A DNA stretch of 64,000 nt. Origin: Vermamoeba vermiformis. Taxonomy: Eukaryota. The position numbers and the translations under genes are program-made. Below, one piece after another: positions 1-61,033 of this stretch. The stretch covers positions 186,001-250,000 of the forward strand of contig JBEWZL010000003.1 in assembly GCA_045837725.1 (NCBI GenBank), written 5' to 3'. Position 1 is the stretch's first letter. Every line of letters begins with the position of its first letter. The notes under the pieces are model-generated. The model did not search any database. It was not told where the DNA came from and saw only the letters and a program-made list of their open reading frames with translations.

Positions 1-509
1 TGCCAGATCCAGAAGTCACCGTCATCGTCCACAATTTTGCAAATTTCAGCGATATTTCACCAGTGCGAGTCATTTGCATTATGATCAGTTACGGCAACCC
101 TGTTAAACGACAAACCAGTGCTGTCGAAGCTGAACTTCAAGTCCTCGTGACAGCTGCAAACGGAACTTTAATTGACGAACCATCAGCGGAACAAATTGTC
201 TCAGAATTCGTTTCAAGTGCCAATGCCAACAAATCGATCGCAGATCCAATCTTAAATCCAAACTCCGATGAAGGTCGAGAATTAATTGGTACTAAGCCAC
301 TCAACGGCAATGAACTGCCCGGAACAGTTCCGTTAGGGCAAGTCCGACCTCCAACTTCCAGTCCGAGCATCGATAACGGACCAATCAGCAACGAGCCTGC
401 TGCAACTGTGCCTGTCAAAACTCCGGCGTCAAAAATTATGTCAAGTGCCTCTCAAGCATTCTTTTCTGCCTACTTAGTTGGATTCATATTGTTCATGCTG
501 CTTCATTAG
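1..509 (+). CDS. 3' part of a Pro/Ser/Thr-rich surface protein with a C-terminal GPI-anchor-like signal (5' truncated by window)
   Basis: Open frame to TAG at 509; P/S/T-rich linker, then small residues (MSSAS) and a hydrophobic tail AFFSAYLVGFILFMLLH. Confidence 0.6.
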   Translation, partial: PDPEVTVIVHNFANFSDISPVRVICIMISYGNPVKRQTSAVEAELQVLVTAANGTLIDEPSAEQIVSEFVSSANANKSIADPILNPNSDEGRELIGTKPLNGNELPGTVPLGQVRPPTSSPSIDNGPISNEPAATVPVKTPASKIMSSASQAFFSAYLVGFILFMLLH

Positions 510-6577: not shown

Positions 6578-9500
6578 TTATGTCATTTTTACAATTTTTC
6601 CGGCTTGGAAATCGCCAGAGACTTTAAAGCCGTGTTGAGCAAAGTAATAAACGCCTTGCCCGTCAAATTTACCCTCTTTAAAATTTCCTTCGTACACGTC
6701 ACCATTGGCTGTCTTATATTTGCCATAGCCGTGCATTAAATCGTCCTTCCATTCGCCTTCATATCGATTTCCAGCTCGCTAAGAAAACGCGTTAAAAAAG
6801 TTGCAAAAAATAGCACATCCACATCCGGATCAATTTTGCAGGCAAGAGACTCAATAATAATACAGCATATTACTTACATCCGAAAACACGCCTTTTCCAC
6901 ACCGCCGGCCTTGTTTGAATTCGCCGTAGAATGTAGCACCAGCCATGCTGCTCCAACTGCCGAGCCCGTGAAACTCGTCGTCTTTGAAGTCACCCGTGTA
7001 CAGATCTCCATTTTGAAACACATACACGCCCTTGCCGTTGGGTACTCCTCGTTCAAAGGTGCCTTCGTACCTTAAAAAGCAAAATAAGGTTAGTACTTGG
7101 TTCGAAAGTTGTGGTCACGCGGATCAGATCAGATGCGCCTGACCCAGATCTTCGCACTACGAAGCTGATGCAAGCAAAAAAAATAACGAAATTGTTACTA
7201 TCATGGTGCAAAAAGCAAAAAGAGAGAGCACAACACCTCCGATTCCCAGGTAGTCTCCTACCCCAGTACTAAGAAGGCCTGAACAAGCTTAACTTCGCTG
7301 ATCGGACGGGAAGCGGTGCATTCTTGTTAGTGTGGTCGTGCCCGAGACGTATTGCTACCTCGTACTCGGGTCACTACTTACTAACAAGGACCAACAACCC
7401 CACATCCGGATCTTTGCGTGTTTTCTTCAAAATTTTTCAAACTCAAAAAAACTTTCTAGGCTTACCTGCTTCCATTGTGCATGGTGTAAGTGCCCTTGCC
7501 ATGTCGAGTACCATCTTTGTATTCACCGACGTACACATTGCCGTCAGTCGTCGTGTAGACACCTTTGCCATGTCGCACGCCCTTGGAATTGAATTCTCCT
7601 TCGTATCGATCGCCATTCGGGTACAGTTTCACGCGCTTGACGAGCACTTCTTCGGTCTTGTTTTCCGCGTTGCTATTTGACGGCGTTGTTGTGTCTTCAG
7701 TAACTCCGTCTTTCTTGCCCGACGGTATGCTGCTGTTGGATCCGGTCTTGGTCTGTTCTTTCGTCAAGGCGCTATTGATAGAATCAACGCTGGCGGGTCC
7801 TTGTGTAGACAGGTCTTCTCGTGGCGTGTTTGGTGATGTTGGCGTTGTAGGCACGGGCACTGTGTTGACGTGCTCTTTCGAGTGCAGTGACGCGAGTGAG
7901 TCCTTTAACGTCAGTTGGGGCCTGACAGGTGTAGTCGGCTCACTTGATTGACCATTTGCAGCTGTAGTTCCGCTCGGCTGCTGAGTATTGCTTGCAATAT
8001 TTGCAGCTGTTGTCTCGCTAGTACTGCTGTTTTTGTCGCTCGAAGTGGCGCCTTGGTGAGGGTCACTTTTAGCGATTTGAAGTTCACTGAACGAATTGCC
8101 AGCGCTCCTTAATCCGCTCTCTGTCTTTTCGTCCAATTTTAACGGTCTAGGTCTGCTCGGTGATAAAATGGCTTTAGGTTGTGGTCGCGGAGATCCGACG
8201 GGGGTTGAGTTGCTGGATCCGCCTCCAAGCTTCTCAATACTGTCTAGCACTGGCTTCTTGATCGGCAGTGCTGTCGTTGGTGGTGAAACATCGTCTGAAT
8301 GGGTCGCGAGTGGTACTGGCATTCGTCGCGGTTTGACTTTGATATTTCCTTCTGCGTCCGCGCTGTACTCTCTGCAAATAAAATTCATTAATTAATCGTT
8401 CACAGAACGTTAAATTAATGCAATTAACCTAACAAGAACTAAATTTCCAAATTTAGAACGCAATAATTTTCATCGCGAAAAGAAGTAATAAATTTTGTGC
8501 CGTTATTTTACGATCAGATATCGTCATATAATATTGCAATTACTATATATAGTAATAATATGATATCGGTGGACTTACACTTTATCGCACATGATCAGCA
8601 CAGCGGGATTATTGCAATATTTTTCCAACAATCGTTTGACGAGTCCACGACGGTCTTCAGGACAATCTTCGTGAAATAGAATACTAATAATATCAATATA
8701 CACATCTGTACACTGCCACGTGCCACGTGCCAATTCGAAGGTCAATGTCCATTCGTACTGGAACGTGTTTTTAATGCACATTTCTTTCCTTCGCGATTTG
8801 ATCAGGATTTTATCTAAATATATTAAAAATGAGATTAGTATAATTAAAATATCATAAGGCCGTTTATGGCTATTGGTTGTAATCGAAAAAAATTAATGGA
8901 TAAAGAAATTCGTGGAGCAAGATCCACGCTAATTTTTGTAATTAAGCACTTTAATTGCATTATTTTAAATATACGTTGCTATTTTAGAAGAATGAAGATT
9001 AATGTATGCAATTAATTAAGAGATTTTTTGTAGGTCGTTAATGCATCCAAAGTAACACGTACCAGCTTTCAAATAAAATTCAATTTTCCAGCCGAGTTTG
9101 ACGTCCTTTGTCATGCACTGATTGCCGAGTGCAAATTTGAGCTCAATAATTGCAGGACTGATCGCTGTTTGATTGACGCACTTCAGCACTGTAATCACGT
9201 GACTGTTATCGCCGCCCATCACTTCTTCGATAAATCGTTGCAAAGTCATGGCAATGGTACCTAAATATAGATCGTTCGGTCAATACGGCTCTTCTAATAG
9301 ATATTTCCATAAATAGGCAAAATAATTTCACCAGCCAATAAAAATTAGTAATTTTGAGCCGTAATCGAATAAATGTAGTAAAAATACGAAATAAATATGT
9401 ATTGGGTATATTTTTGCCATATATTTTGTTTATTATTATTTATTGTTCGATTGCGGGATATTTTACCACGCGATCGGAGGAATTGGATCGAAATAAATAA

Positions 9501-50141: not shown

Positions 50142-51859
50142 ATGGAGGCGAAATACTCGCACGTGATTGATCTTAGGTCAGATACCGTTACCAAGCCAAC
50201 TGATGAAATGCGCGAAGCTATGAAGAACGCAGTCGTCGGAGATGACGTATTTGGTGACGATCCTACCGTTAAGGAGTTAGAGGCGAAGGCTGCAGCCTTG
50301 TTGGGCAAGGAAGCCGGATTATTTGTGACTTCAGGTAAAACCAACAAAACCTCTTCTTTAAAATTGGTGAAAATTTTTTAAATGAATATGGTCGTATTTT
50401 TCGGGTCTAAGCATCGAAGATACTTTCGATCCAAGGAAAATTAATAACGGTAACACCTTCATTTCTGTAGAAGCCACAATTAACCTGTATTATTATTTGC
50501 AGGAACTATGGGCAATCTATTGTGCGTGCTGACCCACTGCAACGGACGAGGTATGTCAATTGTTCTTTGCCAACGAACTGGGTAGTAAATCCGAGAAAAC
50601 ACGCATCAACAAGCGCTCGTGGCTCAAGTGGTAGAGTGTCTGGCTACGAACCAGGAGGCTGCGGGTTCAAGTCCCGTCGGGCGCAATTTCTTTTTTGCTT
50701 TTTACTTGCCAATACCCTTCTAATTAATCCTTCCGGTTCATATTGCTTTCCAGTTTACCGCGGGCTTATCGTTTTTTCTATCATTGTAGATCCAATGCCA
50801 CCAGTTTTTTTTTGGACCGTTCTTTCTTCCCTAACACTTTTTCTAGGTGAGGAGTTTATTGTTGGCGACCAGGCACACATCTACACTGCCGAACAAGGTG
50901 GTTCTGCGACAGTTGGAGGAGTGCACCCTCGTGTCGTGCCTACGAATCCGGATGCCACTCTCAGTCTCGATAGAGTTGAGGCTGCCATTTGCCCTGACGA
51001 CATCCACTGGCCGATTACTAAGCTTGTATGCATTGGTAAGTGCTTTGTTGATGTTAAAACCTTTTTGCGACCGCGACGGATCGAACTAATCCACCTGCAG
51101 AAAATTCACACAACAGATTGGGCGGTCGTGTTATTACACCGGAATACATCGACCAGCTCGGCGCCTTGTGCAAACGTCGCGGATTGGCGTTGCACATGGA
51201 CGGAGCTCGTTTGATGAACGCAGCCGCTGCTCTCGGAGTTCCTGCCTCGCGCATTGTTGCTGCATGTGACACAGTCAGCTTGTGCCTCTCAAAGGGCTTG
51301 GGCGCACCTATTGGCTCCGTTATTGTTGGTCCTAAAGATTTTATCACTCGTTGCCGCCGCTTGAGAAAGGCTCTTGGAGGAGGTAAGTTCCTGGTTTAAC
51401 AACCCTAGAATTACCTTAAAACCCATCCTAATACGTCTTTGTAGGCACGCGCCAAGTCGGAGTTCTTGCTGCACCTGCTCTTATTGCTTTAGAGAAGATG
51501 CCCGAAAAGTTAAAGTTGGATCACGAAAACGCGAAAAAATTCGCTAATGGTACGTTGGTTGATCAACTAATATCGCATTACTAATGGACTCGCTCGCATC
51601 AGGTATTCAACAATTCAAAGACGAAGGTGTTTCAGTGTCGTTGGATGAAGTTCAAACGAACATGGTCATCTTCCGCTACAACAGGAAGGACGTCACTGCC
51701 GCGGAATTTTGCAAACTGCTGTCACAAAAGAACGTGCATGTCCTTCCTTTCTCGTACGGTATTCGTGCAGCCTTCCATCATCAGATCCAATCGAGTGACG
51801 TCGACATTATGATTGAGCGAATGAAGGAATTGTTTTCCGAGCTTAATGCCAAGAAATAA
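50142..51859 (+). CDS. GLY1: Low-specificity L-threonine aldolase
   Basis: [48 protein letters not shown]. Confidence 0.93.
50613..50685 (+). tRNA. tRNA-Arg(ACG): tRNA-Arg(ACG), inside intron 50551-50846 of the threonine aldolase gene
   Basis: Acceptor GCGCTCG/CGGGCGC, anticodon arm TCTGG-CTACGAA-CCAGG, T arm GCGGG-TTCAAGT-CCCGT, T-run terminator downstream. Confidence 0.95.
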
Positions 51860-58800: not shown

Positions 58801-61033
58801 TTTGCAGAGATTATCGAAACAGATTTGCAGTTGCTCGGTGTGACAGGTGTCGAAGATGAACTTCAAGACAATGTCCCCGAGACCATCTCACGGTTATTAC
58901 ACGCTGGTATCAAAATATGGGTAGTAGTACGTACTTCAATATGCTTTCACATAGCTATTTATAATTTACTCACTGATTGTTAGACTGGTGATAAGCGCGA
59001 GACAGCGTTCAACATTGCAAGTGCGTGTAATTTGGTTCATGACTCGAGCACTGTTTTTCTTCAAGTCCGTTCAGAATCTGATAAAGGCAACATCTCCTCG
59101 GCCATGAAACAAATTCAAGACTTGAAGCCCGATTCTTCTGAATACGAGTAAGTGACACGTGTCAAAAGTTGACACTTGATGTCAACACTAAAATATTCAA
59201 GCAATTAGTTAATAATCTTGATTCATTAGTCCCTGATGTTATATTAATGCTTATATATATTTTAGTGAAGAAGATGCTCAAGATCATGAATCGTGGCTCA
59301 AAAATGTCGAAGGTGTCAAACGAGTCGGCTTAGTGCTGGATGGCGAGACATTAGAGTACTGCACTGAACACTACTGGGACGAGATTATGCCACTATTGAC
59401 GCGTTGTGACTCGGTGATTGTTTGCCGCGCCAGTCCCTTGCAAAAAGAAAAAGTGGTCAATAATGTCAAACGATATCATAAGACAGCTGTCACTCTTGCG
59501 ATAGGTAAGGCAGACGTTATCGTAATACAAATACAAATACAAACTGCGAAATTTCCTTAGGTGACGGAGGCAATGACGTGTCAATGCTTCACGCGGCCGA
59601 TGTTGGCGTGGGTCTGCCGGGCGAAGAAGGATCACAAGCGTTAAGTAAGTTATTGTTTGGTAGTGCCTTTGACGGCCTTACTAATGTACGCATAGTGGCT
59701 GCTGATTTCCAAATCGGGCAATTCGAAATTTTGGATGATTTGTTGCTGGTGAAAGGCAGATATTTTTATCGACAGATCAGCATCTTCATGTTTTATTTCT
59801 GCTACAAGGTACCTCATATATACATATATATGTACGTTATATTAATACAATCCCTATAGAGCTTGTTTGAAATTATCTGTCGATTTTTGTACGTTCCGTT
59901 TGCAGCATGGTCTGGCACGAATTTCATGAACGACTTGATGGACACCTTTTATCAAGTTTGTAAGTACCTCTTTCCATATTAGGCAATACTAATGTACACG
60001 ACTGACTTAGTGTTCACCTCTGTGCCAATTATCTTCGTGGGTATTTTCGAAGAGGACATATCCCGTGATTGGCTGTTGAAATACCCGCAATTGTACCGCG
60101 AATGCATTGCCAAGAAATTTTTCAACTTCCGCGTGTACACGTTTTGGATCGCCATCGCACTCTACCAGGGCGCATTCTGCTGGGGAATTTCAACGTGGAT
60201 GTTCAACGAATCAGCGAGCAGTGACGCGAAGTACCCTGGTCTCATGGGCGAGAGCATCATCAACGTCTCGTACATTGTCGTGATTGCTAATTTGCAGTTG
60301 GCCCGCATCATCAAGTAAGTGTTCATGACCGACTTTTGACGCCTAAAACTATCCTACAAATTTGATTTAAAGACTCGCAATTAGTTTTTCGTATTATTAG
60401 TGCCCTTGTTAGTAAGTAGTGACCCGAGTACGAGGTAGCTACGCTTCTCGGGCACGACCACACTAACAAGAATGCACCGCTTCCCGTCCGATCAGCGAAG
60501 TTAAGCTTGTTCAGGCCTTCTTAGTACTGGGGTAGGAGACTACCTGGGAATCGGAGGTGTTGTGCTCTTCTATTTTTTGCTTTTGCGCCGGTCCCTACGT
60601 TCATTTCTTTCTTTTGTCGTGTTGTTGCAAGATCTAGATCAAATTGTCATGTGTCCCATTGCTAACTGCCGATATCATTTTCAGACGATGGGTGTATCCT
60701 ATACACCTCAGTATCTTCGGTTCAATAGTGCTCTACATTCTCATCGTGATTATCCTGTCGTTAGTCGAAGGAACGGATCTGTTTCAAATGGGAGAGTGGA
60801 TGTTCCAAGAACCGAGCTTCTACTTCGGTCTCGTGTTGACAATTGTGGTCTGCTTGTTGCCTGAGCTATTAGTCTCGTATATTAAGCGCACTTATTACCC
60901 GGAGTTAAGCGACATAATCGAAGAAAAAGACGTGTTGAACAGACATCAAAGTGGCTTAGACGAAAAATTTACTGAAGGTTGGATCGAGCTTGCAAGACGA
61001 TCTCGCGCAATAACAAAGCTAGATAAAGTGTAA
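55805..61033 (+). CDS. P4-type phospholipid-transporting ATPase (flippase)
   Basis: [42 protein letters not shown]-terminal TM helices. Confidence 0.95.
60404..60439 (+). repeat. 36-nt conserved 5S upstream block, identical to the 7354-7389 reverse complement
   Basis: Direct sequence comparison. Confidence 0.9.
60450..60568 (+). rRNA. 5S rRNA: 5S rRNA gene, copy 2, inside intron 60315-60684 of the P4-ATPase gene
   Basis: Identical to the reverse complement of 7225-7343; T-runs downstream. Confidence 0.96.

Follow-up and report, generated by a model that had tools for sequence, protein, structure and literature searches.

The window, that is, the whole 64,000-nt stretch of DNA analyzed here, harbors two 5S rRNA genes, which were detected by an Rfam search (RF00001, 104.7 bits each) and are identical in sequence. 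Both copies (hereafter, A and B) are located within spliceosomal introns, on the sense strand of their host genes, and each is preceded by a conserved 36-nt block (hereafter, the leader) and a short variable spacer. The features are listed below by position in the window; signed positions are counted from the first nucleotide of the 5S gene (+1).

7225-7343, minus strand: 5S rRNA gene copy A, full length (Rfam RF00001, 104.7 bits)
60450-60568, plus strand: 5S rRNA gene copy B (Rfam RF00001, 104.7 bits)
7205-7224, minus strand: T-rich trailer of copy A with two T-runs, likely the Pol III terminator; the trailer of copy B is similar, not identical
7071-7465, minus strand: host intron A, 395 nt, in a MORN-repeat gene (GTAAG...TACTAAC...AAG), with MORN Pfam matches on both flanking exons
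60315-60684, plus strand: host intron B, 370 nt, in a phospholipid-flippase (P4-ATPase) gene, with the PhoLip_ATPase_C profile on the flanking exons and frames checked
7354-7389, minus strand: leader of copy A (-46 to -11), identical to 60404-60439
60404-60439, plus strand: leader of copy B (-46 to -11), identical to that of copy A
7344-7353, minus strand: variable 10-nt spacer of copy A (-10 to -1), ending in CTC; 4 of 10 positions differ from copy B
60440-60449, plus strand: variable 10-nt spacer of copy B, equal in length to that of copy A
7380-7388, minus strand: leader arm of stem 1, CTTGTTAGT, pairing with 5S nt 13-21 (7323-7331) in the minimum free energy (MFE) hairpin
7365-7374, minus strand: leader arm of stem 2, GTGACCCGAG, pairing with CTC plus 5S nt 1-6 (7338-7346) in the MFE structures

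Splicing of intron A was seen in a contig of run X7 that joins 7069 to 7466, with the reading frame checked. At intron B, the upstream exon matches positions 67-170 of the PhoLip_ATPase_C profile and the downstream exon positions 180-251. Spliced host mRNA was present in contigs of runs X7 and X10, indicating that both hosts are expressed and spliced. As both 5S copies are sense to these hosts, we infer that the host pre-mRNA must carry the leader plus the 5S. The window has three Pol III genes, and every one is intron-nested and sense to its host. The motif CTAAC occurs exactly twice in each intron, once as the real branch site and once within the 5S (nt 14-18).

The 36-nt block that the first-pass annotation described as common to both copies was borne out: it is identical at -46 to -11 in A and B, and a search of the window allowing up to three mismatches returned these two and no others, compared with none expected. 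The two spacers (AATACGTCTC and TACGCTTCTC) differ at 4 of 10 positions and have the same length, and the identical 5S then follows. A third copy, from DNA run X1, also has a spacer of exactly 10 nt (0 gaps), and the leader-bearing contigs of that run show spacer variants at 7350, 7351 and 7353. The unit shared by the two introns is sharply bounded, at about -46 and just past the two T-runs, and nothing else is alike between them. Outside the unit, 727/3000 and 1610/3000 shuffles scored as high as the two introns (p = 0.24 and 0.54), and an introner-like homology of the whole introns was rejected. A mobile element (MITE, SINE or introner) was rejected as well, terminal inverted repeats and target-site duplications being absent from both introns (seed 7, length at least 8). 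At E-values up to 10, the Rfam search of 7000-7600 returned nothing over the leader; besides the 5S, it gave three lncRNA matches attributable to chance, and no tRNA-like fold was found in the leader. A scan of viral contigs with the leader and a scan of genome contigs with the 5S 5' end both gave 0 matches.

The leader is complementary to -3 to +21 of the 5S gene. As had been noted from the letters alone, CTTGTTAGT (7388 to 7380) is the perfect complement of 5S nt 13-21 (7331 to 7323), a 9-nt inverted repeat of 100% identity in both introns, and GTG-A-CCCGAG (7374 to 7365) complements CTC plus GGGCAC (7346 to 7338) across the start site, with one bulged A. The same annotation held that the spacer had diverged while keeping its length and the pairing CTC; the divergence and the length stood, and the CTC proved not to be specific to the hairpin. 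GTCTC also precedes +1 in L017, a metagenome copy with the same 5S, likewise intronic, that lacks an intact hairpin, and in a flank of run X1 without the leader, the C at -1 is all that is shared.

The 67-nt stretch from the leader to 5S nt 21 folds at -26.9 (A) and -26.6 (B) kcal/mol (z of -5.3 and -4.5), and 0/200 shuffles were as stable in each case. The duplex of the leader with CTC plus 5S nt 1-25 has an energy of -26.9 kcal/mol, which was reached by none of 20,000 shuffled versions of the leader (mean -11.5, sd 2.9, best -26.8 kcal/mol). When aligned with the antisense of -3 to +21, the leader matches at 21/25 positions with 2 gaps, and 18/5000 shuffles scored as high (43/5000 and 14/5000 in further shuffle tests of this alignment). 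The pairing z-scores of the two leaders were -4.5 and -4.9, compared with -1.7 to +1.4 for 22 other 5S flanks. The complementarity between the leader and the 5S is thus real and non-random, and its origin by chance in an ordinary flank is hardly credible. The 5S is self-similar inside, and the first 11 nt of the leader match sense 5S nt 67-77 at 10/11 (168/5000 shuffles), as chance would allow; however, no shuffle reached the duplex, and the leader pairs with the 5' end right next to it, in the order of a hairpin and across the start site. This 10/11 match was also all that spoke for a leader derived from the 3' half (sense strand) of a tandem 5S, a candidate rejected as weak.

The leader was not general among 5S flanks in DNA run X1, where more than 99% of the 5S word depth has a different flank, starting right after -1. 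The depth was ~350,000 over the 5S gene, 2,726 in the bin 7358-7381 and 380-675 for unique flanks, confining the leader to roughly 5-8 copy-equivalents. With more than 99% of the 5S depth leaderless, the block is a minority feature and not the general 5S promoter of this organism. Equivalent pairing was seen in 0/22 other distinct 5S flanks at p<0.05. In L017 the leader is degenerate: only 14 nt are left, 41 nt further upstream (AAGTAGTGACCCGA, retained 14/14 at -76 to -63), its 5' neighborhood has diverged, stem 1 is degenerate though the 5S is unchanged, and the pairing lacks significance (p 0.07-0.25). A second, independent masking hairpin in L017 was considered, as inspection by eye showed complements of 5S nt 7-14 and of the start; these were not significant, and the candidate was rejected. 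Both Pol III genes of L017 are sense to the host, with a tRNA lying 257 nt upstream of the 5S and having its own T-run.

The 5S genes of another organism are dispersed, and across 20 distinct flanks upstream of them sequence information is almost nil beyond -38 and rises from -36 to -1. A conserved block of ~36-40 nt before dispersed 5S genes thus recurs, in that organism without complementarity to the gene. Head-to-head 5S pairs exist there (L028 and L029). For the intron context of its 5S genes, ORF heuristics and Pfam searches on 10 flanking ORFs were uninformative.

Between copies A and B, the block has 0/36 changes and the adjacent spacer 4/10 (Fisher p = 0.0013), and the trailers differ by indels and mismatches. 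Judged by these comparisons, the block is under constraint and kept by selection. The unpaired leader bases, namely the 11-nt part of the loop and the unpaired AA, A and A, are likewise invariant between A and B. We considered a neutral relic, in which the complementarity would be the scar of an inverted duplication or insertion and gene conversion or a recent origin would account for the conservation. The restriction of the block to so few copy-equivalents and its degeneration in L017 would suit such a relic, which we nevertheless regard as very unlikely: the contrast between block and spacer and the indels and mismatches of the trailer speak against it, the third copy repeats the pattern (in the block, 1 change within the aligned part and another at the edge; in the spacer, 5 inferred changes), and conversion by the main 5S family, which lacks the leader, would remove the block and not preserve it.

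The first-pass annotation proposed that only a transcript starting upstream could form the hairpin, which would sequester helices I and II, and this was supported in silico. In both full introns the leader stems had pair probabilities of 0.98-0.99 (0.99 for stem 2 in intron A), and the native 5S helices I and II had 0.000; in an RNA from -10 onward, without the leader, helix I had 0.95 and helix II 0.87. The leader-bearing host pre-mRNA or excised intron is thus predicted to form the hairpin and not helices I and II, and a Pol III transcript from +1 is predicted to fold as normal 5S.

It is possible, and we hold this tentatively, that the leader was selected as an RNA mask, perhaps atop a promoter role. 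The leader in the Pol II host transcript would pair with 5S nt 1-21 once these are made, so that the intronic 5S would lack helices I and II, bind no 5S-binding proteins and not enter ribosome assembly, and the branch-point-like CACTAAC (5S nt 12-18) would be hidden; Pol III transcripts from +1 would lack the leader and fold normally. The leader might then be a polymerase-dependent folding switch, with initiation by Pol III at +1 giving normal 5S and Pol II read-through being locked out of that fold. Such a switch, if true, would let 5S genes sit sense in introns while sparing splicing, 5S-protein homeostasis and ribosome assembly.

The far-above-chance pairing (0/20,000 shuffles, and z-scores well apart from those of the 22 other flanks), the completeness of the predicted switch in both full introns and the sense orientation of A and B within spliced hosts all argue for a mask, as does the second CTAAC of each intron being the one in the 5S. 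The variable positions among leader copies are all in the predicted loop (-13, -10, -8, -7 and -5), and the sole stem change, C to T at -45 in the third copy, retains a G.U pair (n = 1, on the author's reading of the contig). L017 also holds the helix-I-complementary 14-mer perfectly, at another distance. However, the unpaired leader bases are as conserved as the paired ones, the loop length is fixed, and L017 lost stem 1 with no change in its 5S and shows no significant pairing. The 5S arm of the hairpin is invariant, so compensatory changes could not be scored among the copies compared, and the native 5S fold would bury nt 14-21 anyway. In the literature searched, no precedent for such a mask was found described.

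Bacterial attenuators and riboswitches are switches by alternative pairing, and are alike in that one strand of a helix is contested by a segment lying upstream of it and the fold follows the extent transcribed; the choice here would hang on the polymerase and the start site, not on a ligand or the ribosome. A precedent is P5SM, the plant 5S rRNA mimic in TFIIIA pre-mRNA that, as described in the consulted part of the source, is bound by L5 and controls exon skipping (PMC3378873). It too is a 5S-type fold in a Pol II pre-mRNA, one relevant to splicing and 5S-binding proteins, and so counts for the mask. P5SM, as far as that part describes it, is a mimic in a suicide exon that presents the 5S fold, whereas here a canonical full 5S gene (104.7 bits) lies in a constitutive-looking intron and the leader would prevent the fold. 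Were the pairing selected, it would reveal a cell's way of resolving the conflict that arises when the gene for a structured RNA that binds proteins lies within another pre-mRNA, and would provide an RNA whose fold depends on the polymerase that made it.

The leader could also be part of an RNA from an upstream start, either a 5'-extended 5S precursor or an RNA-mediated dispersal unit (about -46 to the second T-run), with the hairpin serving processing, stability or priming. The sharp ends of the shared unit and the dissimilar remainder of the introns would fit, and longer 5S precursors are known: Yarrowia lipolytica has tRNA-5S dicistronic genes, and in Haloferax volcanii a tRNA-like leader is cut by tRNase Z (PMC2566860, in the section relied on here). 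These precursors likewise have a structured sequence directly 5' of the 5S, with a role at the RNA level; the leader here differs from them, so far as that section goes, in pairing with the 5S body and offering no tRNA-like substrate, and no tRNA abuts the 5S. We consider this reading unlikely. Type-1 Pol III genes have their start set by the internal control region, and a spacer diverged at 4/10 positions inside an otherwise identical unit misfits a recent copy. Further points against it are that the leader has neither a tRNA-like fold nor an Rfam match, that the hairpin engages the 5S itself, so that cutting it would damage the 5S, and that target-site duplications were not found.

The reading we favor, at a probability of about 40%, is that the block is a promoter-proximal flank that arose by duplication of the gene's 5' end in inverted orientation; we rank it somewhat ahead of a selected masking hairpin. 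The block would be the 5' flank, maintained by selection, of a 5S subfamily that is small, dispersed and nested in introns, and would act mainly as a DNA element in the zone before the start where TFIIIB sits on a 5S gene. Its complementarity would most likely go back to a fold-back event that copied a short piece of the 5' end in inverted orientation, a copy then preserved by constraint on the flank, and the masking of helices I and II would be a by-product and not the selected function. The promoter role, the inverted-duplication origin and +1 as the Pol III start are each what we infer.

An upstream promoter element had been the fallback of the first-pass annotation. The position at -46 to -11, the fixed distance to +1 and the conserved unpaired bases fit it at least as well as they do a hairpin, and the position and distance match the region bound by TFIIIB on type-1 Pol III genes. 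Since the unpaired bases are also invariant, pairing alone does not explain the conservation of the block. The 21/25 match to the antisense of -3 to +21 is as an inverted duplication would give, and the head-to-head 5S pairs of the other organism were counted for such an origin. Against the promoter role, no clear TATA-like motif is seen at about -30 (-34 to -22 is GTAGTGACCCGAG), the only AT-richer stretch being TTAGTAAGTA at -41 to -32, and the block is on a minority of 5S genes. Neither the 5S depth of run X1 nor two tRNA flanks showed the block to be shared by further 5S or Pol III genes in the genome: similarity of the block to the upstream regions of the two tRNA genes was not significant (2373/5000 and 1641/5000 shuffles as high). 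A shared Pol III upstream motif, TAGTAA..CCGAG, seen by eye before tRNA-Arg, was likewise not significant and was not counted. The 14-mer kept at -76 to -63 in L017 is not predicted by a TFIIIB site, and a promoter role alone is insufficient for pairing that 0/20,000 shuffles reached, so this reading needs an added assumption on origin.

For the S. cerevisiae 5S gene, addition of TFIIIB is described as extending protection up to bp -45 (PMC10245719, in the excerpt drawn on here). The leader resembles this TFIIIB-binding flank, as that excerpt presents it, in position, in the fixed distance to +1, in conservation within a family and in the variable stretch just before the start. It differs in having no clear TATA-like motif, in occurring on <1% of the 5S depth, in not being shared with tRNA flanks and in being an antisense copy of the first 21 nt of its own gene. 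It is well known that dispersed Pol III genes can have conserved 5' flanks; an antisense copy of a gene's own first 21 nt, on a sense-intronic gene, was not found described in the literature searched. The remark that no equivalent had been described agrees with that search.

Even if the block is merely a promoter with a palindromic history, Pol III genes in sense introns would still be an unusual genome habit. Among 609 C. elegans tRNA genes, 44% are intronic and 56% of those are in the host orientation (PMC4999229, in the passage used here). They are alike as small RNA genes in introns exposed to host transcription; relative to the figures in that passage, the Pol III genes here are sense in 3/3 cases in the window and 2/2 in L017, and the 5S copies bear an antisense leader. 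Candidate splice-signal mimics were also observed within the introns, GTAAGT in the leader at -38 and CACTAAC in the 5S.

Three RNA genes were detected when the whole window, which is eukaryotic, was searched against Rfam: two identical 5S rRNA genes (copies A and B) and one tRNA. The two 5S copies have in common a unit of ~190 nt, beyond which their flanks are unrelated (727/3000 and 1610/3000 shuffles score as high).

RNA genes of the window and parts of the shared 5S unit (unit positions relative to the 5S start)
7225-7343, minus strand: 5S rRNA copy A (Rfam, 104.7 bits)
60450-60568, plus strand: 5S rRNA copy B (Rfam, 104.7 bits)
50613-50685, plus strand: tRNA-Arg(ACG) (Rfam)
-46 to -11, gene strand: 36-nt block (leader), 36/36 identical between copies A and B
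-10 to -1, gene strand: spacer, 10 nt and of equal length in A and B, 4/10 positions differing
119 nt, gene strand: 5S gene body, identical in A and B
3' of the 5S, gene strand: trailer, T-rich with two T-runs, similar in A and B

The 36-nt block described in the first-pass annotation was confirmed and is non-random (0/20,000 shuffles). A search of the window at up to 3 mismatches recovers it in copies A and B and nowhere else, and the leader itself has no match in Rfam. The complementarities reported for it were also correct: CTTGTTAGT is the perfect complement of 5S nt 13-21 (stem 1), and GTG-A-CCCGAG is the complement of CTC+GGGCAC across the start site (stem 2).

The pairing between leader and 5S is beyond chance. 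The duplex of the leader with CTC plus 5S nt 1-25 has an energy of -26.9 kcal/mol, reached by 0/20,000 leader shuffles; an equally good duplex was formed by 13 of 18,276 window 36-mers, a count in which the antisense 5S strands and the leaders themselves are included unseparated. The 67-nt hairpins (-26.9 and -26.6 kcal/mol, versus shuffle means of -13.6 and -14.6) had z scores of -5.3 and -4.5, with 0/200 equally stable shuffles each. Aligned to the antisense of -3 to +21, the leader matched at 21/25 positions with two gaps (18/5000 shuffles score as high), and the -60 to -4 flanks of A and B gave 43/5000 and 14/5000 against the same target. Among 24 distinct flanks, the two window copies were the only outliers in the duplex test, none of the 22 other 5S flanks being significant (z -1.7 to +1.4, lowest p 0.064).

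For partition-function folding the introns were trimmed to 7072-7465 and 60316-60690, a few bases off the refined borders. With the leader present, its stems were paired with a probability of 0.98-0.99 and helices I and II of the native fold fell to 0.000, versus 0.95 and 0.87 in a transcript from -10 (0.99 and 0.90 in the 5S alone). The proposal that helices I and II could be masked in a transcript started upstream therefore holds in silico. Selection for such RNA masking, alone or in addition to another role, is a tentative and rather doubtful reading, supported by a predicted switch that is complete and a pairing that is strong and exactly placed. The sense-intron context of the 5S copies also speaks for it, as the sense strand of the host carries copy A and copy B alike.

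Host introns of the Pol III genes
7071-7465, minus strand: host intron A, 395 nt, between MORN-repeat exons
about 50551-50846, sense: host intron of tRNA-Arg, in a beta-eliminating-lyase-type gene
60315-60684, plus strand: host intron B, 370 nt, between exons matching flippase C-terminal profile positions 67-170 and 180-251

Splicing of intron A is visible in one X7 contig, and is consistent with a loose end from run X10. A mobile element was unsupported, with no TIRs or TSDs in either intron and no whole-intron homology between the two.

A metagenome scan with 5S nt 25-57 returned 40 loci with 43 matches, of which only L017 carries the window's 5S; 38 loci are from another organism and one (L010) from a third. 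In L017, the identical 5S (13-131) and a tRNA (388-461), both on the minus strand, lie downstream of an exon ending at M24 peptidase profile position 96/208, followed by GTAAGT. Sense-intron nesting thus appears to hold for 3/3 Pol III genes of the window and 2/2 of L017, whose downstream exon would be beyond the contig; in an excerpt of PMC4999229, by comparison, only 56% of intron-nested tRNA genes of C. elegans are in sense. A genome-wide habit of Pol III genes in sense introns is possible and makes a census worthwhile.

The 36-nt block was found in 0/40 metagenome loci. The L017 flank is nevertheless homologous to those of A and B (0/5000 and 1/5000 shuffles score as high). It retains the 14-mer AAGTAGTGACCCGA at 14/14 positions, 62 nt from +1 versus 21 nt in the window copies, while its counterpart of CTTGTTAGT is degenerate and its pairing with the 5S start not significant (p 0.07-0.25). 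The first-pass interpretation was partly supported, at the level of predicted structure. The loss of stem 1 in L017 counts against masking; the independence of the 14-mer from distance counts for it. At about 170-200 (minus strand) of L017, CGGGCAGAC, 11 nt past the 14-mer, resembles by eye the 5S start CGGGCACGAC, and the 14-mer pairs locally with it in the MFE fold; it may be a fossil of an older leader and 5S junction.

The other organism has many dispersed 5S genes, including divergent head-to-head pairs a few hundred nt apart (L028, L029). Its 20 distinct flanks form about three sequence groups by eye, with conservation limited to roughly -36 to -1; the profile is ~0 bits upstream of -38 and rises from -36 to -1. 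Conserved blocks of ~36-40 nt in front of dispersed 5S genes are thus a recurrent feature, here with no antisense relation to the gene.

Between A and B, changes number 0/36 in the block and 4/10 in the spacer (Fisher p = 0.0013), with mismatches and indels in the trailer; this contrast contradicts a neutral relic, which fares worse than the promoter and masking readings. Run X1 is DNA from what may be the source sample itself or a closely related strain, and is therefore no independent sample; its leader-bearing contigs vary at ≥5% at 7350, 7351 and 7353, all within the spacer, and at 7356, within the loop part of the block. A further leader-bearing copy, the third (record 6), has a different far-upstream flank and 6 differences in 7323-7387 without gaps, 5 of them inferred to be spacer changes; the C to T change at -45 implied by its loose end retains a G.U pair. 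Restriction of variation to the predicted loop speaks for masking; conservation of the loop and its fixed length speak against it, and the 5S arm, being invariant, offers no covariation in its favor.

Summed word depth in X1 was about 350,000 over the 5S gene, 2,726 in the leader bin 7358-7381 and 380-675 in unique flanks, and an alternative flank starts directly after -1. Word depth is not copy number, but by this ratio the leader is absent from well above 99% of the depth over the 5S gene and is carried by roughly 5-8 copy-equivalents. No variant within the 5S reached 5% in X1, so the main family and the intronic copies do not differ in their 5S sequence. In one contig of depth 188, 7248 is followed directly by 7297, with 48 nt of 5S missing; it resembles a 5S pseudogene variant that carries a deletion, at some place in the X1 genome. 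At 6950-7221, two haplotype-like X1 contigs (depths 274 and 401) cover the MORN exon, and the contig over the intron shows 6 substituted positions and 1 indel relative to the window, indicating a haplotype or strain other than the assembled one.

As a variant of a conserved Pol III flank, the leader is restricted to one lineage, present on a minority of copies and unusual in its antisense design. We favor, at a probability of about 0.4, a flank of promoter type that arose as a palindrome and masks the RNA as a by-product, in which the block would act at the DNA level, close to the Pol III promoter. TFIIIB-region flanks of 5S genes are among the nearest described likenesses to the block, which fills the zone protected by TFIIIB in the yeast 5S gene (to -45, in an excerpt of PMC10245719). 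The fixed 10-nt distance to +1, unpaired bases as conserved as paired ones, and the same kind of block in the other organism likewise argue for a promoter role. Against it count the lack of a TATA-like motif at -30, a main 5S family without the block, no similarity to tRNA flanks, and the 14-mer conserved at the wrong distance in L017. For masking, no precedent was found: searches of openly available full texts turned up neither an antisense leader in front of a 5S gene nor intronic 5S genes. Also among the nearest described cases are plant P5SM, a 5S-like fold within a pre-mRNA that binds L5 and steers splicing (excerpt of PMC3378873), and 5S produced from longer precursors (excerpt of PMC2566860). 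A precursor or dispersal unit, a relic and chance jointly take the remaining probability.

The branch-site region of intron A, CCAAGTACTAA (7090-7100, gene strand), is complementary at 10/11 positions to 5S nt 72-82 (7262-7272). The 5S also holds a branch-point-like CACTAAC (nt 12-18) and the complement-like TTAGTA, and the leader has GTAAGT at -38; this complementarity and these splice-like motifs may be due to chance.
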